A DNA stretch of 64,000 bases. Origin: Lophium mytilinum (lineage: Eukaryota). The notes beneath the pieces are model-generated. The model saw only the letters and a list, made by a program, of their open reading frames with translations. It was not told where the DNA came from and searched no databases. The first letter of the stretch is position 1, and the number at the start of each line of letters is the position of its first letter. The stretch covers positions 80,959-144,958 of the forward strand of contig MU004204.1 of assembly GCA_010093605.1 (NCBI GenBank), written 5' to 3'. Made by a program: the position numbers and the translations under genes. Positions 886 to 30,989 of the stretch are shown here, in pieces.

Positions 886-2477
<1,592 letters not shown>

Positions 2478-3011
2478 AGCCGTGCGTTCAACGCTAAGCC
2501 TTTCGAATAATCATCACGCGTGTATAGAGGTGAGGAAAATGAGTTCTACTAGGAGGTGGAAACAAATTCGTAGCGACTTTTTGTGGGAGGTCGCATGTAG
2601 GGATGGGTGGGTGGCATTATGACGCGAGTTTTTCTGCTTGAGCTGTGGTATGCTCGCTGCACTTATTGACTGATGAAGCAAACGCACAAGTCCGCTTTCT
2701 GCTTCTCAAAGCCTCATTTGTTCGCCCTTCTGGCATCTGCTAGGTAGATTGATTCAATTGATGGGTTGTTCTTTCTTTCAGAAATATTTGAAGTTCTAGA
2801 GAGTTCGGCGCATTGTTGTTTGCTGTTTATGCGCCTTTCTCTTGTCCCACACCAACTCATCTCTACTATTCTACTTTCTTTGTCCCCCGCCACTGTGGTC
2901 ATTCATCCAGATCCCAGGAACAGCCAAGACTGATCGTCCCACCCCTCACTCTTCTTCTCTCCGCTTCGTCATCTTGGAATACTCACATGAGTTTCTCTCA
3001 GCATCACAAAA

Positions 3012-3576
3012 ATGCACGTCCCAACGTCCACCCTCTTTCTCCCCCTCCTCCTCCTCTTCCTCCACATCTCCCTAACAACCGCCTTCCATCCCCGCCACCA
3101 CACCCACCGCCCCACATCCACCAGCCCGCACGCCCTCGCCGTCCGCGCCCCCGCACCCGTCCCCAACCTCCCCGGCCCGCCGCCGCCAACCCCACTCCCC
3201 TTCATGTTCTGCGACTGGTCCCACAAGCTGCACTGGGGGTGTCCGAACGCCAATAACGGAGGCGTGAAGCAGAAGTGCGACTCGCCGTGGATCTCGGAGA
3301 GGAAGAAGGGGAGCTGTGCGGGGGCGTGTCGGAGCTTGGCGAGTAAGGAGAGCAAGAGGAGGGGAGTGAAGGGGAAGGGGGGTGTTGGGGAGCCCGGGTG
3401 GGGGACGTGTTATTATTGCTATGATGGGCATTTGGAGGTGAGTTTTTGGTGGGCTAGTAGGCGGAGATGGGAAAGGGAGGGGGGTATGCGATTTGGGGAT
3501 AGTGCTAATAGCGTTTTAGGCGCTCGTGCAGCCGTTTTGGGATAAGGATTGCAATGGGAGGGACGATGATGGGTGA
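3012..3576 (+). CDS. Small secreted cysteine-rich protein, about 160 aa, exons 3012-3437 and 3520-3576
   Basis: Hydrophobic signal peptide (LFLPLLLLFLHISLTTA) and a His/Pro-rich pro-region. The intron GTGAGT...GCTAAT...TTTAG is canonical, and splicing it adds ALVQPFWDKDCNGRDDDG*, giving 8 Cys in total. Confidence 0.8.
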
Positions 3577-4125
3577 GGGGGGTCCAAATGGGGTAGGACG
3601 GATGTATAAGTGAGGAGGGGACGAAGAGGGTGGGGCTGTAGGATCAGGTTGGGTTTGGAGGGACGCACAATTTTCAATTTCGAGCTTTGGAGACGGATAC
3701 TGCTGAAATTTAGTAAATAACGTATTGGGCTGTAAGGTACTATGTTTCGCGGCGTAGAGTTGAAGAGAGTGACAAGCCAACGTTCCAATCTCCCTCCCAA
3801 TTGTTTGAAGTACAACTTAGATCTCGAAAATGAGAATGATGTCCTTTGTGTCAAATGAAACATGAAAAATCTAGTGATTCATTGATATTGGAGTGAATGA
3901 TCAATAAAGTGAAAGATTGGTTTGGAGTCACGTGATGAGGGGCCTGCTCCGTATCATTCCGAAGAATACCTCCACCGGGCCACGGGCCACTTTCCTGCCA
4001 AAACATCCAACTCTCTACTTCATGTACTCTAACTGCACCTAAGGTAGGCCTGCGATGACATCTCCCAGGTATCCCAAGCACCATTATAGCACAATGCCTA
4101 GAGGCTCCTACCTTCATGGTATCAT

Positions 4126-4170
4126 TCGGTGACTCGGTGACTCGGTATCCCGCGTAACCACTTGACGTCA
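4126..4170. promoter_or_regulatory. P450 promoter element: (TCGGTGAC)x2.7 direct repeat plus a TGACGTCA palindrome
   Basis: TCGGTGAC at 4126 and 4134, TCGGTA at 4142, and TGACGTCA at 4163-4170, all 120-160 bp upstream of the ATG. Confidence 0.35.
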
Positions 4171-4286
4171 GGAGATAATATTCATGAAGAAGTATTTCAG
4201 CAAGCTCTTACATTCAATTTCGCGATCAGACCTATCTTACTACTAAATCGCTATCTAGGCCAGAAACCTGAGACGTTGCTTCCAAC

Positions 4287-5989
4287 ATGTCTATCTTTTT
4301 AGTATGTTCAACCCTCGTCGGGGCCTTTATGGGTTACCTCCTCGTTTCAATCTTCAAAAACTATCATGCTGCGAAAGCTCTTGGCATACCAGTGATCCTA
4401 TCTCCATTTGATGTTTTCCATCCGCTATGGTATCTCCTAAGTCCGCCACTTAAGCCCTTGGTATCCCTTATCCCATATCGGTTTCGGAGGTGGTCATCAC
4501 TCTACACTGGCGACTGGCCTTTTCACGACAAGCGCCGTATACACCGCGAAGCCGGAGATGTCTTCGTCCTTGTTACCCCGTGGAACTATCATATAGTCGT
4601 TGCAGATCCTGTAGCTGCAGAAGCGATATACCATCGACGCAAGGATTTTATCAAAGGGGAAAATTACGCAATCTTCAACTTTTTCGGACGAAGCGTCTTC
4701 AGCGTGGACGGCGAAGACTGGTCACGGCAACGGAGAATCACTGCCCCGTGTTTCAACGAGAGGGTGAGCGGCTTGGTATGGGATGAATCGGTTCGACAGG
4801 CTCGTGCGGTGCTGAAGCACTGGACTTCGGATGACCAAGGAGAGGTGGGTTCCATGGTTGATAATACGAGAATGATTACCTTGCACGTTCTATCCGCCGT
4901 CGGTTTTGGGATTCGCCAGGATTTTGGCCACGGGATGGCAGACGTGAAACCTGGACACACGTTGGCATACCGAGATGCGCTACTAGGACTCCTTACTCAT
5001 TTCGTGTATCCATTGGTGTTCCCGAGATGGTTTCTAGAGATGCCTGGGCTTCCTGAATCATCTATGAAGACCGCCGGAACTTCGTTAAGAGAGCTCAATA
5101 GCTACATGGACGAGATGCTGAACGATGAGCGCACAGCCATTGAGAATGGAGAAGCTGCTCCATCGAAACCGAATCTCATGAGCGCATTGATCAGGTCTTC
5201 TGCTGAAGAGCGGAAGTCGAAGGAGAGGCTCACTGATGATGAGATCAAAGGAAATCTATTCATTTTCAATATTGCAGGCCACGATACCACTGCGAACACT
5301 TTCGCGTATGCAATCTCTCTACTAGCCCTACATCAGGACTGCCAGAGCTGGCTTCGTGAAGAGCTAGAACGATACGTCCATGAGTCAGGGTCAACCTACG
5401 AGGAGGCCTTTCCACACTTGCATCGATGTCAAGCTATCATGGTAAGCCGAACAAAACTTCTTTTACACGAAAGGCGCACTGAAAGCTGACGTACAATTCA
5501 TAGTGGGAAACACTCCGCCTCTACCCCCCGGTTCTCGCCGCTCCCCGCCTATCCCACGGGCCCCAATCAATCCCCCTTTCCAACGGCGAATCCATCTCCG
5601 TGCCCCCAGAAGCAAGGCTACATGTAAACCACTACGGTATTCACATTTCGCCCTCCGTGTGGTCTTCCGAAAACGCGCCAGCTCATGAATTTCATCCGCA
5701 ACGCTGGATCCATCCTTCAGAAACAGAGCCAAAAGAGGAGACGCTGCTTCACCCCAAACCAGGCACGTTCTTGGCTTGGTCAGCGGGACCGCGCTCGTGT
5801 CTTGGCCAGAAGTTCTCACAAGTTGAGTTTGTTGCTGTTATAAGTACATTGCTGTTGAAGTATGTCGTTGAGCCTGCCGTTTCGAGGGAGAGGCTGGAGG
5901 CGACATTGGCAGAGACGGGTGCAGGCAGCCCAGCGCTGACGATTGGGAGGAAAGAGGACATTGTGCTTCGATTGCGCAAGGTTGGCTAG
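4287..5989 (+). CDS. Cytochrome P450 monooxygenase, exons 4287-5441 and 5504-5989
   Basis: N-terminal membrane anchor, I-helix AGHDTT, ExxR motif (WETLR, formed after splicing GTAAGC...GCTGAC...TAG), PxRW (FHPQRW) and heme motif WSAGPRSCLG. Confidence 0.95.
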
Positions 5990-8900
5990 TATAGACGCGT
6001 TTGAACCTACAATTGGGGCTACTACGGTGTGCCTCTTGACTTCAAGTCGCGAAATTATGCAACGTCCTTATGGCGGCCGCGCGCGTGTATAACAGTATGA
6101 GACACTACTGATTATCTCTAAAGGTGAAAGAGATATCATTTTTTTCAGCCTCTGAATCAGGCCTCGGTCTCTGATATGCTGATATCTTGTCTCTACAGCC
6201 GAGCAACGCAGCTTGTAATTGTCCCTTGTTGTGTTGTTTTGCCAGCGTACGAAAACATCTGAAGACTCTCTAGCCCATGCGCTTTCAATTTCGCACGATA
6301 TCCTGACTACGAAGGCGTGATTGGACTATCCGGAGGTTCAAATCGCGTCGAATCAAGTATCATATTGTAGAGGACCTTAGACAGTTCCGAGAGGATGCAG
6401 GCTGGGTATGTCCCTCAACGTCGGAGAAGAGAGTGGTCCTAGGAGAGGGTTACCTACACTGGCTTCTGTGTCAGTGATTAACAAGATGCTTGTTTTGAGG
6501 GAGATTCTGCTTCTTATCGTCTTCGGAGGTCTAAGGCCACAGCAGGTATCCCATCTCCTATGGCGCAGTGCTGGTTCTCTAGGCTTGAAGGGGCTTTAAC
6601 CGGCTTCCGGAGAGGCCCAAAAGATGTCTTTGACCGACATAACGCAGCAGCAATGATGAGAGAGAGGAAAAGTTCCCACATAGGTAGCTCATTTGACTCA
6701 AAGACATCAAGGGTTTGCCATGCTTGAGAAACGAGCTTACTTAGGTAAGAGAAAAGGAGTGGTAAGATGCAGTGACCCTCCACCAGCTGCCAGCGATACC
6801 GGGGATCCACAACAGCGCATACAATGCCTTGCCAAAGCCTGTGCACGCTCGTATATCACTGCTTGGGGTGGTCCAATAGGCTTGCGACAAGCTAGACACC
6901 ACATAAAGGATGATGCAGTGAAAATTGGGATACCTTTTGGCTAACCGGATATCTAGCAGCTGGACTACTCTTCACACTCCCGTCTAGAAACTAGCAGTGG
7001 CACCAACTCCCATCCGACAAACTTCCAGTTCGCTCAGAACTTACAAGAGGTCAGCTCAAACACTGGGGCCAACCACGATCTCAACTTCGGTAAACAAATA
7101 AATCTAACCTCTGACTACATTACCGCTTGCCCTCATCACTTCACAAAACTCGAATCACCTCCGGTAACGCGCCTCCATTCACCCAATCATTCCCTTCCTC
7201 CGCCTTCCGCCATCCCCCCTACCTTCTCACCCCTTTTCATCCCGCCATCCCGCCATCACACCCCCGCGCTATAAGCGCCAACACACCGCTCACATATAGC
7301 CTATAATACCGCCCCCATAGCCATATGATATGATAGTAAGACAATTAACGCCCGCAAAACGCAGGCACCGTGGTTTATTATCCCTCACAGTGCATCGCAC
7401 CTCCACGCATCCCCCGGCCCCCGTTCTCGTTCCCTGAAATCTGCGTCTTGCCACTCAACGGCTGGGACCCTCGCGTCTAGCTGCTGTATTCAAGTGGCGA
7501 GTCTGTTATTCTGTGAGCTGCGACTCGCCTACTTTGTTGGCGAGGAGCGGGATTTGTGTATGATGCGTGATATGAATGGGCTTGGGGGGCGTTGCTTTGA
7601 CGTCGCGTAGAAAGGGAGGATCGTAGCAAGGCTATTAATAGATTCTGGGCCGGTATGATTTGGCGCATTGTTTTGTCTGATGGTTCGGAGGATTTGGAGG
7701 TTCCAAAGTAGCTTATTCTGGAAGGCTTTGGAGAGTGCGTCCCCAAAGCCAGCAAAGGCGTGAGGGGGGTTGCGAAGTGTCCGGGACCGTTGGTGATCGT
7801 GGTCTTCTGTTTCTCTGGTACAAAATAGCCTGACATCCCAGGGTCTCCTTGATGTAGGGTCGAGAGTTTGGACGGTTACGATCGATGAGGCATATTGATC
7901 TTCGTGGTTTCTGTAGCGGTAGCACGCGTGATGATCCTTGGTGGATGCGAAAGCCTGGGAGTCTTCAATAGTGGTACCTGCTTGCAGTCACCAGGTTGAA
8001 GCCGAAGCGTGAGATGACGGTCACTGCTCTAGAAATGAACCAAGTCATTCATCCTTCGATGGCACCTAGAAAAGCATCGTTTTAGCGAACATTCTTGACA
8101 ACATCGCACTTAAGACACTAGAAGTCGTGAGGACCCTCTGGGCTGATTCGATTTCACGATAGCAACGTGCCTCGTTCACTTACTTACCTAGCTACGTCCG
8201 TGCCGTGTTCGGTATAGCACCTCTACTATAACCACATCATTTGGACCGCCAATGTCGTGCAGAGACACTCACTACATCACCGGAAGTGCTCCCGTCGCAT
8301 CCGGCATCTCATGTCCCCGCATTCGATCGAATATATGCGCGTTATAATTTTCATCGCGCCCCATAGTACAAAGGGATGAGGGCGCGCAAGTTGCGTTGTG
8401 TCTAGGAGGCCAGGGCCAGGGCAGACTTCGGCTATGCAAGTCTTCTACAACACAAGAATCGCGAAACGAGTCGGACGAGCAGTTTTAGAAATAGCTGGGG
8501 TAATTTGCGACCTGTAACCGCCTCTATCAGCTGAAACGCATGTTGGTCAATGCAGGAGTTTGAGTATGTGGGTGACCCATGGATAAGATTAAGCAGGACT
8601 ACCGGATATTAAGCTATGCGATACGAGTACCATCAAGAAGCAATCGGTGTCTGCACCATAGAACCTTCCGTCCACACATTATAAGTAAATAGTCTATACA
8701 AAATAGCGAAGAGAAACAGCGATGATTAGGAGCGTAAGAAAATGATCTAAAGAATGTGATACAATAACGAAATGAAAGGACATGGAGGCTTGGAAAATTG
8801 AAGCCAAAGAAGTGACAAGGTAGATCGGCTCCAGGTATACTTCTAGGAGTTCCACCGGAACGGATAGCTTCGCTTGCTGTTTCAAGTGGCTGAGAAAGGT

Positions 8901-9694: not shown

Positions 9695-10879
9695 TCATTG
9701 GAAAGGCGGAGCCGGGTCGCTCGAGCTGCCAGCCATCTGCGATTGCGTGTAGGGGCCTTCATCCCCCTCCCCTTCTGCCTCCTCGGCCTCGGCGTCTAAC
9801 TCCATGGACTTGTCTTTGCACGCCGCTGCCGAGAATCCGCTGCCCACCTTGGACGAGATGATGCGCCACCGGTCGTTCTCGTACTCCTGCATGGCGGTGC
9901 GCAGCTTCTGGACCTATCACCAGATGTGGTTAGCCAAGTCCGTCGCCAAATATAAGGGTAGGGCGGGCGTTGTTCGCTTGAGGTCTCAAACACCAGACGT
10001 CGCGGATCTCAACGACACCCGCGCCTCTTCACTGCCGGCACTCACCATTTCATCGGTCCACACGGTCGTCTTCGCCTTCAGCTTCGTACAGTATCGAACC
10101 TGCAGCGTTCCGGAACTGCGCCCAGGGAAGAAATCGGCTATTTGCTTCCATGTAAGGTTCTTCTTCTCCTTGAGATCTACGAGTAGCCCGTCGTCCTCGG
10201 GCGTAAACTTTAGTTTGGGACCTCGCGGGCGCGGTGCCGGCGCTGGCATCCCCTCTTGCCCAACCACGCTGGGAGGGCCATGGTGGTGCGAGGGAGAAGA
10301 CGCCTGTTCGCCGTAGCGGGGCATCTTGTTGGGACGGCCGATGTTGGGCAAGTGATGATGATGTTCGCGCGGTAGAGAGAGCGGACCGGTCGGTTGCGGT
10401 TGGTAGTGAAGGGCAAGGCCCTGAGGCTGCGCGTGATGGCCACCAGGGGTTAGTTCGACCTGGACGTCGCTGGAGCCTTGCTGGACGTCTCCGGGGATTT
10501 CTTCCAGGCCTTGTAGATCTAGCTGGAGGTCCTCGTGCGGGCGGGAGCGCTTGCGGTTTTGCGCCTGGCCGTAGTCGAGATGGGGTTGTCGGGATCCGTA
10601 GGAAGAGGTTGGTGATGACTGCTGCATCGGCTGGTGGCGCAAGAGATGCGATTGATGTAAATTGGGGTGGCTCTCGATACTTGTGACCTGACCGAGGTGA
10701 TGATGTCCGCCATGGTGCTGGAGTGTTTGATGCTGCTGCTGTGGCTGCAGGAAGGGGTTCTGGGGCCCCAGGCCATAATGGAGGACATGTTGATTGTCGA
10801 CGTTTGAGGACGGAATCTGGTCTTCTCCCGGGTTTTCTTGCACGTAATCGAGGGAGAAGCCTCGATAGGAGCCCGCCAG
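9695..10879 (-). CDS. Myb/SANT two-repeat transcription factor with a His/Gln-rich N-terminus (here Myb-A). Exons 10879-10046 and 9913-9695; start codon uncertain (candidate CUG at 10879)
   Basis: KLKFTPEDDGLLVDLKEKKNLTWKQIADFFPGRSSGTLQVRYCTKL, then VWTDEM|VQKLRTAMQEYENDRWRIISSKVGSGFSAAACKDK across the intron GTGAGT...GCTAAC...TAG. The frame is open up to an in-frame TAG near 10901. Confidence 0.9.
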
Positions 10880-11393
10880 CGTTGCGAATATGCATGGAGA
10901 CTACCAGAGCTAGCTTGCTCTGGCAGGCCGCCGCAGTGAGACCTGAGCCAGAAGAGGATGTGGTTTGAGACGCGGTAGCGAGGGCCAGCAGCGGCGTATC
11001 GCACGTGTTTGGGAAGGTTCGTGTTTTGCTATATTGACAAATGTTGCAGCAGTAGTAGCCTGGGGCGACGCGCCATCCAGCGTGTGTGCTATCGTTGTGT
11101 TAAGCGTCAGGATGCCAGATATAGGCGCGAAGCAACAAAACCTTTCTCGAGGGCGAGTCGGGCGCGCAGTGCATTATAACCAGAGTCGCGCAAGGCAGGA
11201 GAGGCATTGAGATTTGGGGCGTGCTCATGGACATCAAAAGCGCCGGTCCTGTGCAATTGCCACACGGACACGGTCGTCCAAGCACGAGAGGCAATAGGTA
11301 CATCCACGAGACGGCCTTTGTTCCTGAAGGGTAGGGAGCTGGCTGAGTAGGGCAAGCCCAGGACGGATTCTACGTCAAGCATAATGCAGTGAT

Positions 11394-13206
11394 CAACTGC
11401 CGGGGGCCCAACCCAGCACTAGATCTGGACAGTAGTCGCAGTCATTTGCCCGTTGCAATGCGCCCGACGTCGTGTTTTGAGTGGCTGACGACTCAAATTG
11501 AGGGCTGTACTGAATAGGTTGAGCTGGTTCCAATTGAGCAGTCGCCCGAACACTGCTCGAGCCCGCAGAGGCTCCGCCCGCACGTATGCCAGCACACATA
11601 GAGGAGCCAGGAAGCCCATGGCCGGCTCTGCGGCCGTTGCAGGCCCTCCGCGGCGGCGTCAGCTAGGCCAGCCCTATTTCTAGAACGCCGCTCGAAGATC
11701 TCCAGCGCCGTTGGAGAGCGCCATGGCCGATCCCGGCAGCCATCGCCACACCAAGGATGCGCATAGAATCAATACCGGCAGGGAGATGAGCAGTTCGCAG
11801 CAGAAGCCAGTGCGCCGCCGAGGCCGCCCAACACTGACGGCCGACAAAACGGCATGCTGGCCGACGCCGTTGCTGGGAGCTGACGGGTGAGGTACTTACC
11901 GCGGCTTCAGCGCCAGCACAGGGCGGCGGGGGCACATGAGGCATAGGGGCTGACGGGGAGGATGAAAGGAGAGCACTTAGCCAGGCACGCAACGCGCCGG
12001 GAGGCTGCTGAGGACTCGCAATAGGTACGCTGTGCAGCCTCTGACGCATACACATCATGCCCTCTAGCGGTGGCTTCAGGTGCTCGGCTGCCGCATATGC
12101 GGTTTCAGTTGGTATATTCGAGGCCCATGTCTATATGCGCTTCGCCATGCCGGCAGCAGTGCGAGGATCGCCCGAGCCACAGCTGGAGACTTCCGACGGC
12201 CAGGTGCAGCCCAGAATGACGCACAAACAAATGCGGGCAGCCTGCGGTGGCAACTGTACGGCGGCGAATTTTGGGAACCTTTGGAAGTATTTTGGTGTTG
12301 TGGTGTTGCAGTGATGGTGGTGATTGATGGGCCCCGTTGAGGCATGAGGTTGGGATCAAACTGCCGGGCGGCGAAGAAGCGCGGGATGCGAAGGCTTGGC
12401 GAAGGGTGCGCCACGACTCCTGACAGTGCTCTATTTCTCAGCGACATCACTTCACCGCAACGATAAACTCGGTCCACCTGATCTATCGGCATGCCGCTTC
12501 CAGCCGCCAGTGCGATGGGCGACGAGGCGAAGGCTGTCCGCCCTCTGCAGCGCATCAGCATTCACATTTTCTACTCTCCGCCCCCGGCCTCAACGCGAAG
12601 CGCTTGCACGTGATGGGGACTCCCTGTGGGCTCAGTTGCTCCTTAGACTCGCTCTAAACGGCTCCCAGGAGGGTACCCCGGCGTTGCTGTCCCAGGGGCC
12701 CCCTCCCTGTACATTCGTCATGTCATCACCGCTCCGGCGGTGCTACTCGAGTGGCTCGCATTGCGCTGGGACGTTGCTTTGTCTCGTCGTCGCCGTGTCT
12801 GCTTTATCCATTTAGGCTGTTGCAGCAGCCCTCAGTGGCCTGGAATTCGGGCGAGATAACCTCTGCCGATTTGTCACCTCCCCTATGCTCTGCGCGTTTC
12901 GGCTACTGGGCCCTACGCCTGTTTCGACACGGCTCGTATCTCGTAGGCCTGGTGTTTCGTCCCGGCGCCAGGGCTCAGGAGCATGCGTCAAGCGAGCGGC
13001 CGCTGAATCGCACCATCACTCAATCTGCAAATCTCATCGCCATCTCGTCAGCATCCCGACTCCCGTCGCGCAACGGCGACTTCTCCACACCTCCACCACA
13101 TCGGCTCGGCAGCATAGCCGAATGGACTGCCCGCTCCCGTGCCGTTGCACCATCACTGACCGAGATTCGGCGGGCGGAATGGAACCAGCAGACCGCCAGC
13201 CAGTTG
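11394..13206. promoter_or_regulatory. Cluster of Myb-consensus hexamers (CAACGG/CAACTG on either strand) upstream of Myb-A
   Basis: CCGTTG at 11450, 11634, 11708, 11867, 12334 and 13142; CAACGG at 13071; CAACTG at 11394 and 12251; CAGTTG at 12106, 12633 and 13201. Confidence 0.45.
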
Positions 13207-13772
13207 GCAGTGGAGTAGCGGCGTACAGCGATACGCTGAGTCAAGCCGCATGGTGCTACTGGCCTCCGATCGGCGAATCCTAGTGATGGAAGGCATGCGT
13301 TTCGTCGAGCAGCGGTGGACAGCGAATGACCAAATTCGAAACAAAAGACTGATTAAACTGACCAATGGCTCCCGCTGGCCGGCCCAGCGCGCGGAGGGCC
13401 GTCCAAGTGCATCAAGGAGCGGGCTCCCCGGCAGGCGGTTGCCTATACTAAGCAAGCGGATATCATCCAGCAAGATTTTCCTCGACCTGATGACCCAGAA
13501 CCATGGAAAGACTCAAAAAAAGGACCAGACCCAGGAGATTACACGAGAGACGCACCCGAAGCACCAGACCGAAGGCCGAACGGAAATGCACATATGCCTC
13601 GACGACTCCTCCGCCAAGAGAGAACCGTGTCCAAAGAGCCCCAAGCAACAGACGGCTGCCGACAGGTCCTGCGATCGGCGGATGCTGCATGCAATACTCC
13701 ATTACAACCAAAGAGAGCTGGTATCATAAGCAAGACGCTAATCCGGAAACACGCAGGCTGTGCTCTTGAACC

Positions 13773-14743
13773 TCACAGCTTCCCACCAAAATGCTCTTTC
13801 GCATACGACTCGCACGCCTGTCCACCCGTTAGTTGGCTGCGGGCGACTTCCCAACACGGAAGAATGAGCTCGGCCTACTTTTGCAGGTTTTCCCACTTTC
13901 GTGCCAATGACTTTCCACTTGTTGGCGTCGTACTCCTTGATCGCCGCCAGCAGAGCTGCACTCTATATATCTGGTCAACGAGACACTGCTAATTGCCTCA
14001 GCCGGAAGAGGGACCCACCTCGTCTTCTCCAAACTCGGCATAGTGCATATCCTGGAGACAGTGTCGTCAGCATTGCAGTCCTACAAGTACCATCAATCGC
14101 CAAGTTTGCCCGTACCTTGTACCAGTGCTTTTTCACACTGCCCTCTGTTCGGTGCGGAAAGGTCTAAGGCACAGACATGCAAATCAGCGACCCCAGTTTC
14201 CAACGTATCCCTAGATCAAAAGTGTGGTGCGTCTGTCTCTCGAGTATGTTTGTCTACCTTTGCAATTTCGCTCCAGCTGTTTCCCGCATCTCTCATTTGC
14301 TTCAACGTCTGCTCCTCTTTTGCCGTCCACGGCGTGTTTGTCCGACCCTTCTTCACCACGGGCTGCTGCGGCGGCGGGTCGAGATCCGCCACAGGCGCGG
14401 TGGCCAGGCCATACCCGCTTGACGCGGCGGCCGTGGATGACGCTATAGGCTTAGCCTCGAAGTCAGAGCCCATGGAGGACTTTCGTTTTCTGGAGTTCCC
14501 GGGCGTGGGCGGAGGGCCGAATGCCGAGACGCTTGGATTGGCGGCAGGGAGCGCGTTAGAGGAGTCGGTCGAGATGTACTGAGTCGTGGGAGCGATGGGT
14601 GAGGGTTTCAGGTTGCGCTTCGCAGCGGGCGACGACCTGTGAAACGGAGAGTACCACGTCAGCACTCACGAGGTAGGAGGGGCAGAGAGTGGACTAAACG
14701 GGTCGGGGCATCCAGCAAGTGAGGTCGAGGGGACTCACGACAT
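13773..14743 (-). CDS. Myb/SANT two-repeat protein, about 197 aa (here Myb-B), 6 exons: 14743-14739, 14636-14258, 14163-14116, 14051-14019, 13962-13879, 13817-13773
   Basis: Spliced translation ...KKGRTNTPWTAKEEQTLKQMRDAGNSWSEIAK|TFPHRTEGSVKKHWYK|DMHYAEFGEDE|SAALLAAIKEYDANKWKVIGTKVGKPAK|ACESYAKEHFGGKL*. It shows the W-x18-19-W spacing of Myb repeats, and all junctions are GT-AG and in frame. Confidence 0.92.
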
Positions 14744-17090
14744 GACGGATTAGCCGTCGTTTATGCGGCAGGCGGCGTGGGGAGGTAGGTGGGCTTTTCA
14801 CTTGTCACGTCGAGGGCATCTGCAACCTTTGGGAGGAGGTCAAACCGGTTCACGAGCACTCAGAGTGACAAGCTGCCTGTATTGTGGTGGCAGTAGATCA
14901 TGATGATATTCAAGCAGGCAGATCATCAGTCGGGTGTAGGCGCTGATCCAGTACATGGATACAAGAGAGCTAGGTTCGCAGGCAGGCGAACGAATAGTAC
15001 AGCGCGTGTGGAGGAGGACAGCGGGGGCCTCTGGGGTTCATTGGGGCCGCGGACTCGCAGCCGGCTAGGGCTGTGTGGAGGGTGTTGAGCGGACGCATGA
15101 GGGCGTACAGCTACTTCAAACTCTATACAAAACCCCCAGCAGACAAAGTAGCAGTACCGGGAGGGAGAAAGCGGGGTAGGCGGGCGCAGATGAAAGCGGG
15201 TGGAGCCCTGGTGCGGGATTCGACGACGTCGTCACGCGGACCGCCTTGTTCATGCAAGTGATGCAGCAGGGCAGAAGCAGACGTGCTGGCCGGCCACTAC
15301 AGACTCTCGAGCAGCGCGGTGCGGCGTCGAGGTCAGCTTTGAGTGCAGCGCGGCGAAGTGTTGGCTGGTCTACGGAGCGGTGCCGCTGCAGACAGATATC
15401 GTCAGGCTGCAAGTGCTGCAGCTGTGCAGACTCGCTGCGGCCATCGGACGAACGAGAGCATCGATATAGATGCTGTGAGCAGAAGAACCCCGCCTGCCCA
15501 CATCGTTGGAGTCGTACGAAGTCGTGCTCGTGCTGCTCAGATACCATGCACTGCGCCGCACCGTCTCTCCCACACCCGGCCAGCTTGTGAGAATTCATCG
15601 GCGGGACGAATCAGCTCAGAAGCTAGCAGCATTATCATTGCGCTTTTCCCCGCGGTGGTGTCAGCATACCCCAGCCAGCGGTCGATGCGCCCAGAAGCAG
15701 TGAGTGTTGCAGATGGCGCGGACAGTTCCCTCGAATCACTGCTACAGCTGAGTACGGAGTCCGTATCCACCAACAGTGTACATACGACTACATGCACAGC
15801 GGCTGGCATGCACGTCAGTTCTCTGATCTCGCAGCTGGGGGAGAGCGTAGTCGCGACGATGGTGGTGGTGTTTCCCGCCGCCAAGCCTCTACCGTCCAAG
15901 CGCTGGACTTGACACATGAGGCGTGCCGGAGTGTCAGCCTCAGTGTTTGAGCCGGATTTCAACTCCCCCATCGTGTTAGAACATCGCCGACCGCCTCCAG
16001 CAGCTCTGCGAAGCGCGGGACGGCGCTGTTCCGAGCCATGTTTGCAGTTTGCACCTCTGACAGCCGTTCCAGCTGGTGCCCATGGTTTCGACGGCTCGAC
16101 CGAGTGCTCCTCGACGACGACACCTCGACGCCATCAGACAAGCGGCGCCGCAGAGTACCACCAGCTGCAGTCAGACAGGGCTTTTGAGTGCCATCTTTCC
16201 GCATGCCAGCTCTCCGGTACTCACTACCAGCACAAGCCTCGACATATCGACAACAAGCCTCCCACACAAGGTCCTATTGACAACAAGCTCCGACTAACCC
16301 ACAACCCCAGCGGCAAAATAGGGCCCTCTACAACTCTATCCGCGTTCTGGCCACTCCTTGCGCAGAGCCAGATCCTACTGTTAGCGCCCGCTATCGCCGC
16401 TCCTCTAAGGCTTGTTTCTGCTCTCCCCGCCTGATACACGGCCGCCGCTGCTCCAGCAATCACAGAGCGTGGATTTCCCCCCCTCGTTGCGAGTTTTGAA
16501 ACCCGTTTCTAGCAAGGCTGCTTCGGGGGGCACTTTCATGCACTCGTGCCTCTGATCTGTCCCAGATCCCGTGCCCGCTTCTCCGCCAAGCCGCTGCTCC
16601 GGCCCGATGCGGCATGGTGCGTCTCGCATCGCGGGTTTCCAAAACAGATGGCCCAAGGTGCCGCTCCTCCACCATGGCGACGATCAAAACTTAGCCTGCA
16701 GGAGGGGGTTTGAAAACGCTGTCAACACGCCTTCCAGCCACTCCAATCATCATGCTTTCGCCGCGTAGACCGCCTGCCGCTAGAAGGGTGCTAACTATAT
16801 ATCCACCGTCCCAAGGCCCCGATTGTTGACGCCTCATCCGCTATTGTGCTCTCGGCTTCAGTCTTTTTCTCTTAGCAGCCTTGTAATACTTTCCTTCACT
16901 TCCCACTGGTTGGGCTGCCTTACATTCTTTAATCGACATTGCTGAGCAATACGACTGTTGTGTCTACCGCACACTTAATCCATTCTTTCACATATACCAG
17001 TTTTTGCAATAACGTCAGGCACGAATCCTAACGACTTGAACATTGGACCTCTTTACACAATCTCTACAACACAACAACGAATCAAGCATC

Positions 17091-18147
17091 ATGCTTCATC
17101 ACCACTCTTCTCAGGCGCTCTCTCCTCTGACCGAAGTGGACTCCAACTCGTCTGGCCTCCGGGCACGCAAGATGTCCTCCACAGGCGGCAACAGGTCCTG
17201 GTCTGAGGAAGAGGTGAGTTGAAGCTACAGTTTGGCCCAAGAACATTGCTGACAGCATCAAGGAAAACTATCTCCTTCAGACTCGCATGCAGAAGATGCC
17301 CTATAAGCACATCGCTGCTCACCTTAAGAAGACGGAGTTGGCCTGCCGCCTCCACTACCACCAGCTCTCTCACGGAAGCCATCGCCGCAAGCGGACCGCT
17401 TCTGTCTCTTCCACGGCCTCTTCCCACTCCGCTGGCCAATCTCCGCATCCTCACTACTCCATGCCTAACGACCGCGACGACTATTTGGAGTCATCTCGCC
17501 ACGCTTCTCCGGTCAACTACGCCAGCAATAGCCCTCAAGTCCGTCCGGCTCCTCTCAACACCTCGCCCAATCGCAGCCAACATAAGATTCTCCTCCCTAA
17601 GCCTCGTCCCTTGACACCCCGCCACTCCCCGGAACCCCACAACGCTCTCCGAATCAATACCGCCGACATCCATCACCACAAAGTCATTGACACCGAACGC
17701 CTCCGCGCCATCTACGAAGGTCGCCGTGCACAATTTTGGGCCACTGTCGCTGCTGACTACGGAGCTGATGTTTCTCCTGCCCAGCTAGAGGAAATATGGC
17801 GCACCGGTACGAATATCGCTCGCCCACCTACCCCGGATGCCTCCCCAGATGGCAGCATCATGGCTCATCCCATGTTGAAGCCTTCTCCCTTCGCCTACCC
17901 TTCCACCTCCGCGTCTGCCACCGACCCCTGCAAGAACTTCTCCCCATTCCATAACATCAGCGCCATTTCCGCCCCGGACCGCTTGCCGTTCGTCCTGCCC
18001 ATGCCCGTGCAGACACCCATTCAGGGCCGTCTGTCTCGTGCCTCGACATGGGGATCAAACAGCTCCGGGGGTAACAACGTCCCGATCGCAGCACTCTTGA
18101 CCGAAGATCGGGAACCCAGGGGTGAAGATGCTGGCATGAGGGATTAG
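17091..18147 (+). CDS. Single-repeat Myb-like protein (here Myb-C), exons 17091-17213 and 17263-18147
   Basis: NRSWSEEE|ENYLLQTRMQKMPYKHIAAHLKKTELACRLHYHQL followed by a basic HRRKR patch. Intron GTGAGT...GCTGAC...AAG; TATATA at about 16797. Confidence 0.88.
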
Positions 18148-20120: not shown

Positions 20121-20696
20121 TCATTCGGATCTAGCCCGGACGTAGTAGTATCCCCTATCCTTCCTCTTATGAAAGTCGTAGTACGCCTTGTCAAAGTCGA
20201 GAAGCCTTTTGATCCCACGGCAAGCCTTTTCGTGTCCCTTGCCGAAATGGGTCGTCCGACACCGTTTGGAGCAATAGTAGTTCAAGCGACTGCTCGAGCA
20301 CGAGAAAGGAAGATCCGTCTCGTTACAGGCGGGAGCGGCACAGGTAACCGGCGAGGTCGCAGCTGGTAAGGGATGTCGTGTCACACGGGTTGGGACCCCG
20401 TTGACTTCGATTTCGTCGTCCTTAGAAGCTGGATCAGACTTCAAGTCCGCAGCCATGTCATTCGCAAGATCCTCGCTCTTCATTTCGATCACCCACTCAT
20501 TGAAGTTGAGGCTCAGGGTTTTCCCACTAACGAAAGCACCAACCCGGTTCAGTTCATCAATACTAACTTCAAACGATTCCAAACCGTCAGCGGAGTCTTC
20601 TCCCAGCTGTTGCATCGCTTCGACGTCGAATGATCGGCTCAAAACTTTGTTCAGTCTAAATACACGTATAGAAGATTCGTTCAACAGTGTACTCAT
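20121..20696 (-). CDS. Hypothetical protein with a degenerate C-terminal MYND-type zinc finger
   Basis: CAAPAC-x8-CSSS-x4-YCSKRC-x8-HEKAC follows MYND ligand spacing. The first ATG of the ORF is at 20696. Confidence 0.65.
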   Translation of the reverse strand: MSTLLNESSIRVFRLNKVLSRSFDVEAMQQLGEDSADGLESFEVSIDELNRVGAFVSGKTLSLNFNEWVIEMKSEDLANDMAADLKSDPASKDDEIEVNGVPTRVTRHPLPAATSPVTCAAPACNETDLPFSCSSSRLNYYCSKRCRTTHFGKGHEKACRGIKRLLDFDKAYYDFHKRKDRGYYYVRARSE

Positions 20697-21273
20697 CTCT
20701 GCTGACTTGGTTTTTGGGCGTGAGAGTAACACTAGTCTGACGTGGGGATGAACAATTGCCAAAGCTGGGAACAGAAGTAATTAGATTGCAGCTTCAAAAG
20801 AGTCCGATGCCATATCTATGCAGTGCTCAACAGCTCCTTTTGATGGTCAGTGATTGTTATAACTACGTAAAAGAAGTTTCAAGTTTGGACGCTCTGCATT
20901 GGAGCTGCACAAACGATATAAACGAAGACAATGCCACCCAAAACACGTTCCGTATATACACTAAGCGCAAACCTTAGCGGTTTCATTGCTTTAGTCAGTC
21001 TGACTCAAATCGTAGAGATTTCTGACACGTATCTTAAGTACTAAGGCTTCTATTAGAATAGGTCTCATCACCAGGTGTCTCAGTGAGAATGTAGAAGACA
21101 GGAGAAAAGCTGGAAGTGAAGACTCTAAGTAAGTATATGAAAATAAAACCGAAATGTAATTAGTACTGAGTATTATTATCCATCAAAAATCCAAAATTGC
21201 ACTACGACTTGAGTATCTTGCATTCCCACATAACAATCTGGTTCCTAAACAAGTAGCTCCATATCACGGCAAT

Positions 21274-24200
21274 TCATCTTCTTGCAGTTCCACTACCACT
21301 TCCGCTTCCTCCACCCCGCCTAGGACGACTTTCAGACCCACCATAAGCTGGGTTTTGGCCCGCGCCCGGTGTAGACCTGGCAGCCCAACCAGGATTTCCA
21401 CCCATATCCATGGCATCGGGGTTGTGGATATCGAGGTGCGCAGGGACATCTCCGTAATGCGGGATCGCCTCCTGAAGCGACGGAAGGGAAGCGCTATGCG
21501 GTGGATATGGTGCTAGCGGACGCAGCGGCGCCCTCGACTGGGCCTCATATGTGTAGAAGGGCTGCGGGTTGAATTGTGGTGAAGGGGATGGTTGGTACTG
21601 CTGGGAAGGAGAAAGCTGGTAGTGGTACTGGTTCTGCATTTCCTGGGGGTTTTGATGCGGTAGTTGCACACTCGGCATTCTAGATGCTCTGAACTCACTC
21701 ATTGGTTGCGTATTATCCTCTCTGAAAGGCGCGAATGGCGCGGATGGTTGAGGAGTGTAGAACGGCGACACAGGGGGCTGTTGCTGTGGAGGTGCTTGTC
21801 TGGATTGTCGCAAGTCTCGTCCAGCCATGTTCCATCCTAGAGGCTGGAAGCTCTCGGAAACGAAAGACTGCAGGCCTGGGTCTTCAAGAAGAAACATGCC
21901 CGTGTTGCCCATCACCGTGTCTGAAGGACTATGTTCCGATATGTCGAGACCCGGCCGTTTGCAACCCTCCGCAGCACCACTTCCGCTTTCCTCCTCCATT
22001 GCAGCTTCCTGGCTAGCCTCTGCTCTTTGCCATCTTTGTCTCTTTCCTAGCTCTACTAAGCCCCAGCTGACTCTCTCGACTGCGAGGCCTGCCAACTTAT
22101 GTATGCCTAGCTTTTCGAGCTCCACAAAGACAGCATATGCACGCTCGACTTGCGGTACATTGGCCAAGCTCCCTGTTTCGAGGGCGTCAGTGAGTAGGAT
22201 CATACAACTGTTGAAAGCTTGTTGGCCCATGGTCCAGCATATAAGTGCGGCCGGAACGCGATGGTAAAAGAAGAGAAAGGCATCGATAAGAGACCGAGAA
22301 GAGGTAATGACGAGAGAACGACCACGTTCGCCAGCCTTAGGTCTTGCAGACCTAGACTTAGGTTCGGTAGGATTGTCCTTGGTTGACGGCGTCTGCGTAG
22401 GGAGGGGTGGTGGTGGCATGCGGGTTCGATCGGAGGGGCTGTGGTGCGTGATAGGCGCATTTATAGGGGTGAAAGAGGTGTCGGAGACATGGAACGGGTT
22501 GGCTGCATCCTGTGGAGACTTAGGCGGGTCAGAGGTGTCTATCTCAGGCTCGATTCTTTGGCGGTTGAGAAGTATCAGGTAGTTCTGAGTTTTGGCGAAG
22601 AAAACTTTTCAGCGTTAGTAGGACGTACGGTCTTATTCGATTACATGGACATGCATACCTGCCCCCATGGCATCAAGTGGCCACTCCGGGATCTGCTTGT
22701 CCTTCTCCAGCCAGGTTTCATCGAATTGGAGCATCTCTGGAACCGTATCCCATAGGGCAAGTAGTCTATCTGTGAACCAATCGATCTTTGTAACAGTCAG
22801 TCGATCACTGCTAAGGATCTGTCTCGCGAGAACAGTGTATTGGTTTATGTACTCGCTCAGACGCACGATAACCGGGTTAGTAGTCAGGGGTTCAGCGGGA
22901 GGACAGTCTCCAATGCCACTGATTCCGAGCGGACGTCCGAGGGTCATGGAGTATTGCTGGTCCATGTGAAGCATCCACCACCAAAGAGTCTGCCTTATTC
23001 CACATTCTTTTAGGGGCGGAGCGGGGTCGAGATATTTTGGGTTTCGGTGGAGGCCGATGGAGTGAGCGAGGCGGATAGTGGTTCCAAACAGTGTCCAAGC
23101 ATCGAGAAAGCGGCCACTGTTAGTCAAATAAGGTCCCATCATGATGAGTGTTTGTATGCCTAAGAGCGTTGGTCGGTTCATGAAAGAGGCCATACGGAGC
23201 GCTTGCATCGCTGCAGCAACTAGTGCAATGTTAGCATTTCTATGCCACATAATAAGCCTCCATGCAAACTTACTGTAAATATCTCCAAACTTCTTTTGCT
23301 CAGTCTCCATAGCACCTTCCACCCATTTCCCGTTACACTTATCATAGACTCCATTCTGAGATCCTAGAGCTAGGGCGGCAAATATCAAGGCGAGCATATC
23401 GGGGAACATCTCAGCATTGGTTTGCACATCCGAGAGAAACCTCTCGATTTCGGTCGTAGTGATCTCGTCTGGTACGTGAGGGAACGAGCAACTCTGAGCA
23501 CGATGCTGAAATGCATCCAAGTACCGAAACAGGTCCTCTTTGGGAGGTAAACATCGTAGCAAAGCAGGTATTCCCCCATCAGATTGAGGTGTGGCCACTG
23601 CCAGCCACATCGTGGCGAAGGGATACGCCGGCGTGTTTTGAGAAGTATACATGTCTGCTCCTCTCGGCATAGAGTGACTGAGAGAGTGGGACCCAACATG
23701 GAGGCTTGCGAACTAGAATACTATCAGCAACCACAACAAACAAGAAGGGAGATACCCACATCATTGACAATACTGGCAAGCCCTGGACTACCAAAGTATA
23801 GACTCTCAGACTTGTTGTCTTTGAAGCGCTTTTGTTTCACTACGGGCCTCTTCGCTCTCGCTCCTGGCCGATCGCCCAGTGGCTGGCTTGGGGATGGGAC
23901 ATCTTGCTGTTCGTCATCCACTGACTGCTTTGCAGCCCGCAGGCGTTCCTTGAGACGCAAGTTCTCAGCACGAAGCTTTCGGAGCTCGTAAGACTGCAGG
24001 ACAGGCTCGTATGTACTGCCCTCTGCGATGACGAAGTGACATTCTTTCGGCACCCCTCGAGCACAGCAAGAGCTGCAGGGCTTGGTCCGATCGCACTAGG
24101 AGCAGATCAGTCTTATGCCAGCAGCGGAAAGCGTCATTGTCCGATCTGATGATAAGCTTACTTTGACTTTGCGTTCACGGCATCTTGTGCACGAGAGTGG

Positions 24201-24332
24201 TTGGCGGGTTTCTTTCTGCGTCTTCTTTTTGCCAGTGTTCTGGGTTAATCCAGGCCCGTGAATTCCGAGGACATTCTCGGTCGACGAGGATGAGCTAGGA
24301 ATATGCGGCCAGGACGGGCCTTCTTGGCTCAT
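21274..24332 (-). CDS. Zn(II)2Cys6 transcription factor with a fungal-specific TF (middle homology) domain, about 5 exons
   Basis: RQPLSCTRCRERKVK|CDRTKPCSSCCARGVPKEC across intron 24161-24096, plus IRLAHSIGLHR...RQTLWWWMLHMDQQYSMTLGRP. TATATAA at about 24465-24471 on the minus strand. Confidence 0.92.
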
Positions 24333-26148
24333 GATGGACGAGACGGGCAGCAAGTAGTATAGTGAGGGCAAATTAGGCTCTAGTGGATGATGATGTTGGG
24401 ACTATTAGTGGTCTGAGAGGAGATGGTTGGTCGCTCCGAGAAGCAGGACCTAAGGCGCTGATCCTTATATATCCATGATCTTGCCGGAACTGCGGCGCCT
24501 TCTGCTTCTCTCCATTCGAGTAGTGCTCCTTTTTCGATTCCCTTCTCCCACCTACCTCAAGAGTCAGGACATCCCACTGATCTCCGCGCTTACCGACGAG
24601 AATTCCGACAGGCTGGCTCCTTATTGCACACTGCTGCGCAGCGGCGTCACCTTCGAGATCTGACAGCCAGTGGATTCTTGAGGCGCGACTTGAAGGCGCA
24701 CATTCTCATCGGCGAGGTGATGAAGCACTGGGACATGTGTGGCTAGGTATCCAAGGTTGTGAAGGTGGCGCGCGACATGTACCCACCCACCACGCCATCT
24801 TAACGAGCTCCGGATCCGTCATACCGCGTTCTGTTAGCAGATAGCACGGCCGCGGTAGTACAGGAGTATCGCCAAGCCGGGCCAGTTTATCCACCTGGGC
24901 ACCCAGAGACCAAGGATTAGGAACAGGATGGGCAGATCTCTTTGAGATGGCCCACGCTGGCGGGCCGATCCCCCATACTCGGGCGCTAGGGGCCGCAATG
25001 AACGCTCGGCACTATCCGATAGTTCCAATTGCTCACTGCGCAAGCCGAAGGACTTAGAAAAGCCGGAGGCCTCCTTCTGAATGTCTCAAGTCAATGTCGT
25101 TTACAGCTAGTGATAGACAGCTGTCAGGCGTCACCAATCTACGGGGGCCAAGGAGCGTCGTTCCGGGAACCCTAAAGACGCCACTACTCCATGTGCCGCT
25201 TCCAAGTCGCCGTCACCCCGTAGTCCGATCTGGGCTAGATTGCTGATCTCCTGTAGCGGGCGCTTCGATGTCCACTACCTTGGTGGCTGCATCTCAGGGT
25301 CTAGAACTGCCCTTGACATCGCATTCTCGATCTGTCATACAGGGGAAGTATTCCTAATGTCTAAGGTGCTGCATTGAGTGCATCGAGGGCATTGGCATAG
25401 CATTAAGTGATCAGTGAGTATTATTGCGGCTTGATAAATTCAACATCTACCAATATCAAGTAAGAGACGCAGATCCGTGCTGCTCCAAGACTAGCACAAT
25501 AGAGAAGAATATTCCAAATCGACCTGCACCCACGTGCTGGAGCCCGAGAATTGGGGTCGCAAGCGAGAAGATCGGCTGCTACGATTACTCAACATCATGG
25601 CCAATGACGTGAGCCGCGACATGTATTTGGCGAGAAATGACGAGCGAGCCGCATGCGCAATCGTCAAAATAGACACAGCGGAAACGCCTCATTCTACCCG
25701 GCCGACCGGGAACCCGAGATTCCAGTGAGATGCACTTGCATGTCTTAGATACCCGATCGAGCCTTTTGCAGGTAGCTCCGATCTTCCTTTCCCACGTTCT
25801 CTCATAAGAATAACTGGCCGTCGGCCAGCTGTGCGATTCTTGAGGCTCCTTCGCGTACAAAAAGTAAACAACGGCATACGATTCGATCTTAGTGTGTGAA
25901 CCTGATTCCAGCCCACCCAATATCAAGTTCCAGCCCATAACTTACAACCGCACTAACCCATATAGTGTACATGTATTTACAGCTCCCCTACGCCACTAAT
26001 TATCGTACAACATCCATTGATCTTCGTACCACGCTTCCCAAAACATCATCCGGGGACATCGAGCGCGAGCCTAGGCAGAAACCCCCACCAGCTCGTGTCG
26101 GTCGGGATCGATCATCAAGCGCCTGCGCGAGAAATGTGACACCGATCT

Positions 26149-29100: not shown

Positions 29101-30199
29101 TTATTGGCAGATTATTATCGGAGATTTGATCTGGTGAGGCCAGCGGTACTTGGTCAGTCCGCAGAGCGGTGACGGCCTCTTGAGAGTCCTAAATTAAGTA
29201 TTGTTAGAATATTGACAGAGTGAAGGCATAAGTTAAACGCACTCTTGCAGAGGTGTGATATGATCTATTGTGCTTTGCTTGGTGGAGAGACAAGAGGCTT
29301 GAAAGATTTCTATCTTCACTATTGATCAAGAAATGTTTCCGGAAAGGATGTCTGGGGGGCCCCTCTGGCTTCCAGACAGTAGATCGTACGGGGTGGTCAT
29401 CATACTTCCGGACAACAGGTCGTAAGGTGGTCTTCCGGACAAGAGGGCGGGCTTCATACTTCCGGAGTCGTTTCCTGACTGGAGAACCTTTAATGGGGGC
29501 CTGACTGTCGAGTTGGCCGCTATTTGGTATATCTTGGACATCTATAGCTGATGCTGATTGGTCTTCGTCGAGGAAGGATGGCTTAGGGTATTGCTGCCAT
29601 GTTTCCAGAAGCCTGCTTACGTCTGCGATACTTTGGGTAGGAGGTGAGTTGTAGTTTCGAGTAGCGTCTACCATATGAACTAGATTTCGCGAGGAACGTG
29701 AGTGTCGGATCTGGACATCTCCAGGAATCTTTGTAATTGTGAGTTGGATACGGGGAGGTGCAGGAATGTTTCGAATTGAGTGTTTGACCTGGGAATCTAC
29801 AGAAATCTTTCCAAATCTTCGCCTACTGCTACCGTCCGGAGGCAAGAAAAGTGGGTGTGCGACATGGGGATCTCCAGGAATCGGTCGAAATATGTAGTCC
29901 CTCCCGCCTGCCGCTTCCTGCCTGTTGCTTGACCGCTCCTTGCGCGCCCACTCGGGGATTGTATTTTTTAATTCCTCAACGTCACCAGCAATATCTGCGG
30001 GCGCTTCGTCGCATGCTGCAGATCGAGATTCGGATTGTGATGGGTCCTCAGAGGGTGAATCGCGGGCGGGACGGGAATGAAACGGGAGAGAAGTCAAGGT
30101 CCTGATGGGTTGGGTTTTTCGACGCTGCTCGATGATGCAGCTCCGACAGACTGTGGAAAGCTGTGTCGTCCGTGGAATTTGTATCGTGGGAATGGACAT
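26149..30199 (-). CDS. cyt-4: Mitochondrial RNase II/RNB-family exoribonuclease (Cyt-4/Dss1-like), 3 exons
   Basis: RNB motifs CVDDPSAQEIDDGLS, IHVANPT, ETVYMPE and YAKVTSPLRRYGDM. The N-terminus is Arg-rich and presequence-like (CRSCIIEQRRK). Two introns (about 29242-29190 and 28865-28820) join the three ORFs in frame. Confidence 0.88.
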
Positions 30200-30614
30200 G
30201 GCGCATTGAGCGGTGCTGTCGAGCTTGACGTGTTATAAAAAGTCGGCAGGAGGTCGTTGCTCAATAAATGCCAAGCCGCAAACCTCCGCGGCGAAATATA
30301 AGGTTTCAATCATGGGTTTTCACCACAACCTCTCACGTTCCACCCCAACCACCAACATCAGCTCTATCAGCTACATAAAGGCCTCCACGGTCTCTTCGTT
30401 GCATTAGTGGCTTTCCGGGCTCGCCCGGGTCACAGTGCCGATATCCAATTCAGACATTTACTAGGAGTGTTTCTGGGTGCATAGTCTTTCTGGCCAAGGT
30501 ATTTGCCTCTTGTCTCCTGTCCATCCCTTGCACCCCTATCATGATGATCCATTAGAAAAAGCATGTATTATCCGAACAACTCCCTTGGGACGCGTACTGC
30601 GGAGAACATCTACA

Positions 30615-30989
30615 ATGACTGACTCAGATCCCACAACGTTCTATCTTTCGAAGTCTTGTCGCGGATCCTGGCTAACCATGCGCAATAGATCCTTTCACAT
30701 GGCCTCCAACCGGCCTCCTCCTGGCCACTTTGAACTGCTGTACTTTGCAGCCGCCTCAGACTTTGCCGGGAGAAACACGGAGAATATACCCGCTCCCATC
30801 GTTGCGACGGACCTCTTCGGAGTCCTTGAACAGAGATATCCTGGCATAACAGAGAAGGTGTTGAGCAGCTGTGCAGTCACTGTGAATTTGCAATACGTCG
30901 ACCTGGAGGGTGAAGACGCGGCGGACAAAGATCTGATTATCCAAGAGGGCGACGAAGTCGCTATCATCCCGCCCGTGAGCTCGGGCTGA
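30615..30989 (+). CDS. cnxG: Molybdopterin synthase sulfur-carrier (small) subunit, MoaD/MOCS2A family; start at 30615 or 30699
   Basis: LLYFAAASD...L..RYPG...VLSSCAVTVNLQYVD...GDEVAIIPPVSSG, a ThiS/MoaD ubiquitin-like signature. Confidence 0.9.
   Translation: MTDSDPTTFYLSKSCRGSWLTMRNRSFHMASNRPPPGHFELLYFAAASDFAGRNTENIPAPIVATDLFGVLEQRYPGITEKVLSSCAVTVNLQYVDLEGEDAADKDLIIQEGDEVAIIPPVSSG

Follow-up and report, generated by a model that had tools for sequence, protein, structure and literature searches.

Three linked Myb genes in Lophium mytilinum and the conservation of their arrangement in part of the Dothideomycetes

Three Myb/SANT genes, here called A, B and C, lie consecutively in a stretch of 64,000 nucleotides of the Lophium mytilinum genome (the window). 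A and B are read from the minus strand, and C, head-to-head with B, from the plus strand. A and B are paralogues. The three genes have kept their order, orientation and spacing over several dothideomycete orders, although their flanks have changed. Transcript-type contigs, in which splicing is seen, extend over most of the spacers, and conserved non-coding blocks are present there. On balance we lean to the view that the trio is an old block, restricted to certain lineages, which is kept together by shared or interleaved cis-elements and long untranslated regions (UTRs) and in which A and B alternate, and that it does not form a closed self-regulating circuit.

Gene models and kinship of the trio

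The arrangement proposed in a sequence-only reading of the window, with three consecutive Myb/SANT genes separated by long spacers that are free of other genes and rich in guanine plus cytosine (GC), was borne out. The spacer between A and B has 2893 nucleotides with 59.5% GC, and that between B and C has 2347 nucleotides with 57.6% GC, compared with 54.1% for the window. None of 13 open reading frames (ORFs) tested within the spacers, flanking or overlapping them gave a Pfam match, and tRNA and Rfam searches of the spacers found neither a tRNA nor an Rfam match. A hidden gene was looked for in the spacers and not found. Each of the three genes is present in one copy in the genome. A family search gave at least 12 other Myb matches scattered over 43 Mb of the genome, so that adjacency of the three by chance is unlikely.

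Splicing was followed in contigs of three public runs that we guess to be RNA, each organism being represented by a single run: X1, which matches the window exactly, X2, from a relative, and X3. These contigs give neither strand nor transcript start, and their depth was left unused for ranking genes. The intron of A is skipped in contigs of X1 and X3, and that of C in all three runs. Most introns of B are also spliced, with introns 1, 3, 4 and 5 removed in X2, and introns 3 and 4 also in X3. For B intron 2 no spliced joint is listed in X1-X3, and X2 and X3 contain intron cover. Contigs cover most of both spacers, reaching 11152 or 12337 on the A side and extending over 12763-15434 on the B side. 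One X1 contig spans 12991-19750 with all five B introns retained and the C intron spliced; it is possible that this is antisense, read-through or a messenger RNA precursor (pre-mRNA). Exon 3 of B (48 nucleotides, the last helix of repeat 1) is absent from 11 predicted proteins of the B family and present in 100. Retention of intron 2 or skipping of exon 3 could give non-binding forms of B, although errors of prediction are also possible.

The protein encoded by A has two C-terminal Myb repeats that follow a long region rich in glutamine and histidine. In Pfam, A-type and B-type proteins each have two stretches above the cut-off, and the C protein has one, at 23.9 bits for a PF13921 cut-off of 22.9. 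Comparison of the A and B profiles using hhalign gave a probability of 96.5% overall, 94.7% in the first repeat and 97.0% in the second, and neither of the scores for the repeats was reached in 100 column shuffles. Set against 16 other Myb-type loci of the genome, the second repeats of A and B are reciprocal best matches (24 bits, compared with 6 or fewer). The two genes also have in common a phase-0 intron, four residues past the first aromatic residue of repeat 2. Judged by these comparisons, A and B are ancient head-to-tail paralogues. The three genes had been described as dissimilar and not recent duplicates. Their age stands, but the dissimilarity does not, because the repeats of A and B align and share the intron. 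A structure model of B has six helices, with Myb and Cef1 as the top fold matches, all at E above 0.001, and the B profile matches c-Myb at E = 1.5e-12. Three distant glutamine-rich proteins (P0489, P0491 and P0494) have tandem repeats of the B type, which suggests that the B family predates the filamentous ascomycetes.

Gene C had been credited with one repeat, and A and B with two each. The latter counts were correct, but C has a second conserved helical block at approximately residues 185-222, about 100 residues downstream of the first repeat, modelled with a predicted local distance difference test (pLDDT) score of 86. Pfam gives no score to this block in this C protein. Compared with repeat 2 of A it gave E = 5e-4, which none of 100 shuffles reached, but E = 0.14 in the full-length comparison. 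Matches to the second repeats of A and of the MYT1-like protein of this genome, at E of about 4e-4 to 5e-4, exceed all shuffles and are weak. For each block of C the latter protein is the best alignment partner, with scores of 35.8 and 20.6 that none of 60 shuffles reached in either case. The intron of C is at the same offset as that of A and B, but lies in repeat 1; it could be of convergent origin. None of six other printed repeats has an intron there. The whole-protein model of C is poor (pLDDT 53), so the fold searches made with it, which gave no useful match, are uninformative. On the strength of the block alignments, C is probably a split Myb gene with a degenerate second repeat; it is related to MYT1 and not its orthologue. 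The trio would thus consist of the A/B pair plus a split-repeat, MYT1-related gene. A, B and C are putative sequence-specific DNA-binding proteins.

Conservation and loss of the linkage

Linkage in named species was counted by eye among the best 120 of 1011, 918 and 493 matches. There were 33 named species with at least two members of the trio, of which three were dropped since their records came from different strains, leaving 30 informative Dothideomycetes. In 29 of these all listed members are either on a contig of equal length, which is only a proxy for the same contig, or at consecutive locus tags. The exception is Delitschia, where A is on a contig of 16.5 kb. Tags are consecutive for all three genes in Kalmusia and Plenodomus lindquistii, for C and B in five species and for A and B in one. 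In Verruconis the tags of A and C are two apart.

Order and orientation could be followed in metagenome loci. Within the best 80 of 207 loci, 13 have at least 8 kb upstream of the A Myb region. Five of the 13 have C-B-A in the same orientation as in the window, with 4.1-4.3 kb from A to B and 7.3-7.4 kb from A to C. A further four have B-A with no C in reach, and the remaining four, three of them from one organism, have PRP8-A without B. Spacer lengths are nearly constant among relatives. The immediate neighbours of the trio in the window are absent from the 18 loci compared, where only a gene from 52-55 kb of the window recurs, in four. Even in the closest relative the flanks have changed while the trio is intact. 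L040 has a second partial copy of the A Myb region at 7423-7584, 2.4 kb downstream of A. An apparent C-A fusion in L056 (2990-3900), where the first repeat of C joins the A Myb region out of frame at a short shared word, was set aside as probably an assembly chimera.

PRP8 is found upstream of A in L040, L045-L047 and L078, and upstream of B-A in L057. In Lophium it is on contig C14, apart from the trio. Outside the Dothideomycetes we have taken synteny from published locus numbers together with unnamed loci. A Myb gene is beside PRP8 in Fusarium, where FGSG_02536 is the PRP8 side (PMC4825928). In Neurospora NCU07832 is near rcn-1, NCU07834 (PMC5940138; PMC5592922), while AN4523 is beside AN4524 in Aspergillus nidulans (PMC11199622) and Afu2g03030 beside Afu2g03020 in Aspergillus fumigatus (PMC8062887). 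By the orthologue table discussed below or by adjacency to PRP8, rcn-1, AN4524 and Afu2g03020 appear to belong with A.

The block is conserved in part of the Dothideomycetes, and is not kept across all Pezizomycotina. The ancient linkage proposed in the sequence-only reading stands for much of the former class, with order and orientation kept in the metagenome loci and named species consistent with them, but it is not universal, being broken in Magnaporthe and Fusarium. The syntenic blocks of Ohm et al. 2012 (PMC3516569) resemble it in that gene order is kept amid frequent inversions, and those of the Mycosphaerellaceae are enriched in transcription regulators. The trio differs from them in consisting entirely of related transcription factors, and the word Myb does not occur in the main text of that paper. 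In the literature searched we found no account of the linkage of the trio, of C or of a CUG start in A, although Tables S8-S9 of Ohm et al. may list the block unnamed.

Elements of the spacers and the start of gene A

The positions of the genes and elements are collected in Table 1. Of 12 aligned sequences, 11 keep TTCTAGAA at 11678-11685 upstream of A, and 10 keep a YAACNG hexamer that is 30 nucleotides from it. By consensus the first is heat-shock-element-like and the second Myb-like. The A-B spacer of the window has 15 copies of YAACNG compared with a shuffled mean of 9.0, but in nine orthologous A-B spacers the number is not clearly above the shuffled mean, and the B-C spacer has three where 8.3 are expected from shuffling. 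The proposed control of A by Myb sites was not upheld, since such sites are not enriched in the orthologous spacers.

A divergent promoter between B and C had also been proposed, and the conserved elements of that spacer support it. The paired dyad on the C side is present in all seven loci that cover that stretch, and the window has three matches to the dyad where 0.52 would be expected. The element of about 80 nucleotides that precedes C shows no covariation and has no Rfam match; a structured RNA in the C leader was rejected because covariation is absent. In the B leader an invariant 10-mer at 15169-15178 contains a CreA-like SYGGRG word.

Control of A at its start codon, the third regulatory proposal, is supported by a conserved upstream AUG, the context of a CUG codon and a hairpin. 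Sensing of start-codon stringency is a known mode of control. It appears that CUG is the main start of A. The first in-frame AUG (10627) is 84 codons downstream of it, inside the conserved region and behind four out-of-frame AUGs. The features of a non-AUG start are present, in that a near-cognate codon is kept in good context, AUG replaces it in some lineages and coding conservation lies downstream. All 27 distinct contexts found have a pyrimidine at −3 of the upstream AUG. This is followed by CUG at +16 in 21 of the 27, by CUG at +13 in one, by GUG in one and by a weak AUG at +4 in four. Another 21 loci fall outside this pattern, two of which carry the upstream AUG on inspection. An in-frame AUG without a clear stem is seen in a group of the 21 to which L042, L048, L052, L053, L059, L067 and L074 belong, and in L074 AUG stands in place of CUG. 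The frame of the upstream AUG overlaps A. It has 281 codons here, but its length is not conserved, varying over 27-295 codons, and given these lengths and the lack of a Pfam match a coding role was rejected.

In the hairpin 92% of cells are paired, a value that none of 500 shuffles attained. Only two pairs have two-sided change, reached by 32 of 500 shuffles, and the test is inflated by the relatedness of the sequences. The 101-nucleotide leader region as a whole has ordinary stability (z = −0.85). A leader intron that would give A an in-frame AUG was rejected. X1 contains no joint over 10044-12337, nor does X3 as far as 11152, and the upstream sequence of a spliced homologue of transcript type agrees with that of its genomic twin (P0121, P0122).

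Non-AUG starts are known in fungi, and such initiation is conserved in Neurospora cpc-1 (PMC5487733). Like cpc-1, A encodes a transcription factor whose near-cognate start is conserved, with putative control by an upstream AUG. It differs in that CUG is apparently the main start, coupled at a fixed distance to the hairpin and the weak out-of-frame AUG. Loci of the PRP8-adjacent type (L045, L049, L062 and L065) have a weak in-frame AUG where gene A here has CUG. Many database models of A begin at the downstream AUG and are some 85-95 N-terminal residues short, which matters for tagging and complementation.

Table 1. Genes and candidate control elements of the Myb trio, in window coordinates
Feature	Position	Strand	Description
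Gene A	10879-9695	minus	Myb/SANT; exons 10879-10046 and 9913-9695; 350 amino acids from CUG start
Gene B	14743-13773	minus	Myb/SANT, minimal two-repeat protein, 197 amino acids; six exons: 14743-14739, 14636-14258, 14163-14116, 14051-14019, 13962-13879, 13817-13773
Gene C	17091-18147	plus	Myb/SANT; exons 17091-17213 and 17263-18147; 335 amino acids
Predicted CUG start of A	10877-10879	minus	Purine at −3, G at +4
Upstream AUG, out of frame	10893-10895	minus	Weak context, 16 nucleotides 5′ of the CUG; conserved
Hairpin	10901-10926	minus	10 base pairs; ends 5 nucleotides before the upstream AUG; conserved
Leader/promoter of A	10880-12337	minus	Several conserved non-coding blocks; RNA-type contigs end at 11152 or reach 12337
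Conserved block upstream of A	11678-11716	minus	Holds TTCTAGAA and the YAACNG hexamer
Probable long 3′ UTR of B	12763-13772	minus	Covered by the relative's B contig past the stop codon (run X2)
Divergent B-C spacer	14744-17090		10 invariant runs of at least 7 nucleotides in 6 of 6 aligned sequences
Paired dyad GTTT-NN-AAAC	16493-16502 and 16708-16717		About 214 nucleotides apart, on the C side
Conserved element of about 80 nucleotides	16870-16950	plus	Closely follows a TATA-like box upstream of C; probably 5′ UTR

Orthologues, expression and the persistence of the block

Lee et al. 2021 (PMC8660761) give the MoMYB repeats of Magnaporthe and an orthologue table. A matches the printed repeats of MoMYB9 (MGG_05240) nearly residue for residue, and B matches those of MoMYB8 (MGG_01133). 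By this measure A is the orthologue of MoMYB9 and B that of MoMYB8, for which the table gives FGSG_02538 (GzMyb007) and FGSG_02719 (GzMyb008) in Fusarium respectively. A shares with the MoMYB9/rcn-1 group its near-identical repeats, its single copy and, in outgroups, the neighbourhood of PRP8. It differs here in adjoining B and C, with PRP8 elsewhere. B is likewise single-copy with repeats nearly identical to those of MoMYB8, but it is linked to A and much shorter (197 compared with 390 amino acids), and a function can be proposed for it by orthology. AN4527 (188 amino acids, two C-terminal repeats) is probably the counterpart of B, going by its size, domain position and locus number only.

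A linkage of MYT1 and MYT3 had been suggested as a possible parallel, and this was not borne out. MYT3 has 2304 amino acids (PMC3983115) and is another kind of protein, A and B fit MoMYB9 and MoMYB8, and MoMYB5, the MYT1 orthologue, matches locus L083 on contig C15. MYT1 is FGSG_00318 and MYT2 is FGSG_07546 (PMC3184970, PMC3359310), and the genes of Lophium resembling them are both on contigs other than that of the trio. C differs from the MYT1/MoMYB5 type in having some 100 residues between its repeats. Short peptides from the MYT1 and MYT2 primers had no match among the 500 proteins compared. MylA (PMC13630534) was also considered, and is a different gene from the trio members. The genome has two near-identical MYT2-like Myb genes, L090 (C2) and L091 (C22).

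MoMYB8 affects growth, chitin synthase expression and melanisation in the dark. In their expression MoMYB9 and MoMYB8 belong to opposite clades, with which alternation of A and B agrees better than co-expression would. In A. fumigatus, where the order of the columns was inferred from the head row, the A candidate Afu2g03020 is induced by about 2.3 log2 on heating the wild type, and its level is reduced by about 2 log2 under repression of HsfA (PMC8062887). With HsfA repressed, Afu2g02990, which only its position assigns to B, is up by 1.6 log2 at 15 min (PMC8062887).

We suggest the following for the block. A would be its signal-responsive member, induced by heat through a site of heat-shock-factor type, with translation throttled by the hairpin, the weak out-of-frame AUG and the CUG start. 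B may be a vegetative regulator of cell wall and melanin, by orthology to MoMYB8, and A and B would tend to be on in different states. C probably represses via its C-terminal I-x-x-L-L motif, which is conserved in 106 of 111 homologues and which we take to be a repressor motif; the Atlas gives Ascomycota only as the range of C. An inversion breakpoint in either spacer would part a gene from its own elements. The elements and long UTRs would leave few harmless breakpoints, and so the block persists. Where it is broken, as in Magnaporthe, each gene would have retained its own control region.

A number of observations weigh against this reading. The five trio loci from metagenomes amount to only about three independent lineages, and L057 and L072 lack a C between B and the DUF498 gene upstream of it. 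MoMYB9 and MoMYB8 are unlinked in Magnaporthe, on chromosomes 3 and 5, and the Fusarium orthologues are 181 locus numbers apart (PMC8660761). None of the 17 Neurospora Myb genes listed is numbered next to rcn-1 (PMC5592922), and the Aspergillus candidates are three locus numbers apart, with two unrelated genes between them (PMC11199622, PMC8062887). Knockout of rcn-1 only reduced conidiation (PMC5592922), the accessible text lists no defect for the MoMYB9 mutant (PMC8660761), and in the portion available the AN4527 deletion is not singled out for any phenotype (bioRxiv 10.1101/2021.03.09.434684). Nor is long-lasting synteny exceptional in itself, with 502 syntenic blocks common to Pleosporales (PMC3516569).

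The linkage might instead be a historical remnant, in which a tandem duplication gave rise to A and B, an inversion brought in C, the genes have not yet separated, and each spacer element serves its nearest gene only. The breakage or loosening of the block in Sordariomycetes and Aspergillus, and the persistence of so many blocks in Pleosporales, would fit. So would PRP8, an unrelated gene that likewise remained next to A in several lineages, showing that long-lived neighbours need no shared function. Yet the 5.2 kb of spacer offer a large target for inversion, and the trio was kept with near-constant spacer lengths where the flanks of the closest relative changed. Moreover, only two blocks extend across 18 Dothideomycetes (PMC3516569). 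The Pleosporales part of the conservation is thus ordinary, but its extension to Mytilinidiales, Venturiales and Aulographales is notable, and we consider a mere remnant unlikely.

It is likewise improbable, in our estimate, that the trio is a self-regulating module whose proteins bind the spacers and control each other, for example with A repressing B, or B or C using the dyad. The hexamer conserved upstream of A, the paired dyad with its inverted AAAC halves, the opposite shifts of the A and B orthologues and the terminal motif of C would all accord with such a circuit. The excess of YAACNG, however, is confined to the A-B spacer of the window and is reversed between B and C. Regulation in trans needs no linkage, and the sites for A, B and C are candidates drawn from motif counts.

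A bolder reading, in which the three related genes make up a fungal cluster of Hox-like character, a single developmental and stress switch for which linkage is required, seems to us distinctly doubtful. A would then be gated by heat and by start-codon stringency, with the hairpin refolding behind the scanning ribosome so as to favour CUG over the weak AUG; with A and C on, antisense or read-through transcription would silence B, and the paired dyad would be the site through which C represses. Physical linkage would also be necessary for a switch by transcriptional interference, where a long plus-strand transcript through B, or the long leader of A, turns B off in states where A and C are active; the X1 contig with B unspliced and C spliced, set beside the spliced B of X2, would fit this, but we regard it as very improbable, for the contigs lack strand, a contig over two genes proves no single transcript, unspliced B pre-mRNA would look identical, and the runs are guessed RNA, one to an organism.

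Genes like A and B, conserved blocks and non-AUG starts are each already known as kinds in fungi. Clusters made up only of related transcription factors are rare there, and dothideomycete genomes are shuffled fast, so that a block preserved in several orders is a sign of shared regulation that merits testing. Through the block C, an uncharacterised regulator, is tied to two genes for which knockouts have been described elsewhere, and specific elements can be chosen for mutation. If the linkage is only historical, the value lies in the corrected annotation and the CUG control element of A.

Neighbours of the trio in the window, at 1824-5486 and 20124-30986, encode a protein kinase, a cytochrome P450, a MYND-finger protein, a fungal-specific transcription factor, a cyt-4-like RNB protein and a ThiS-family protein.

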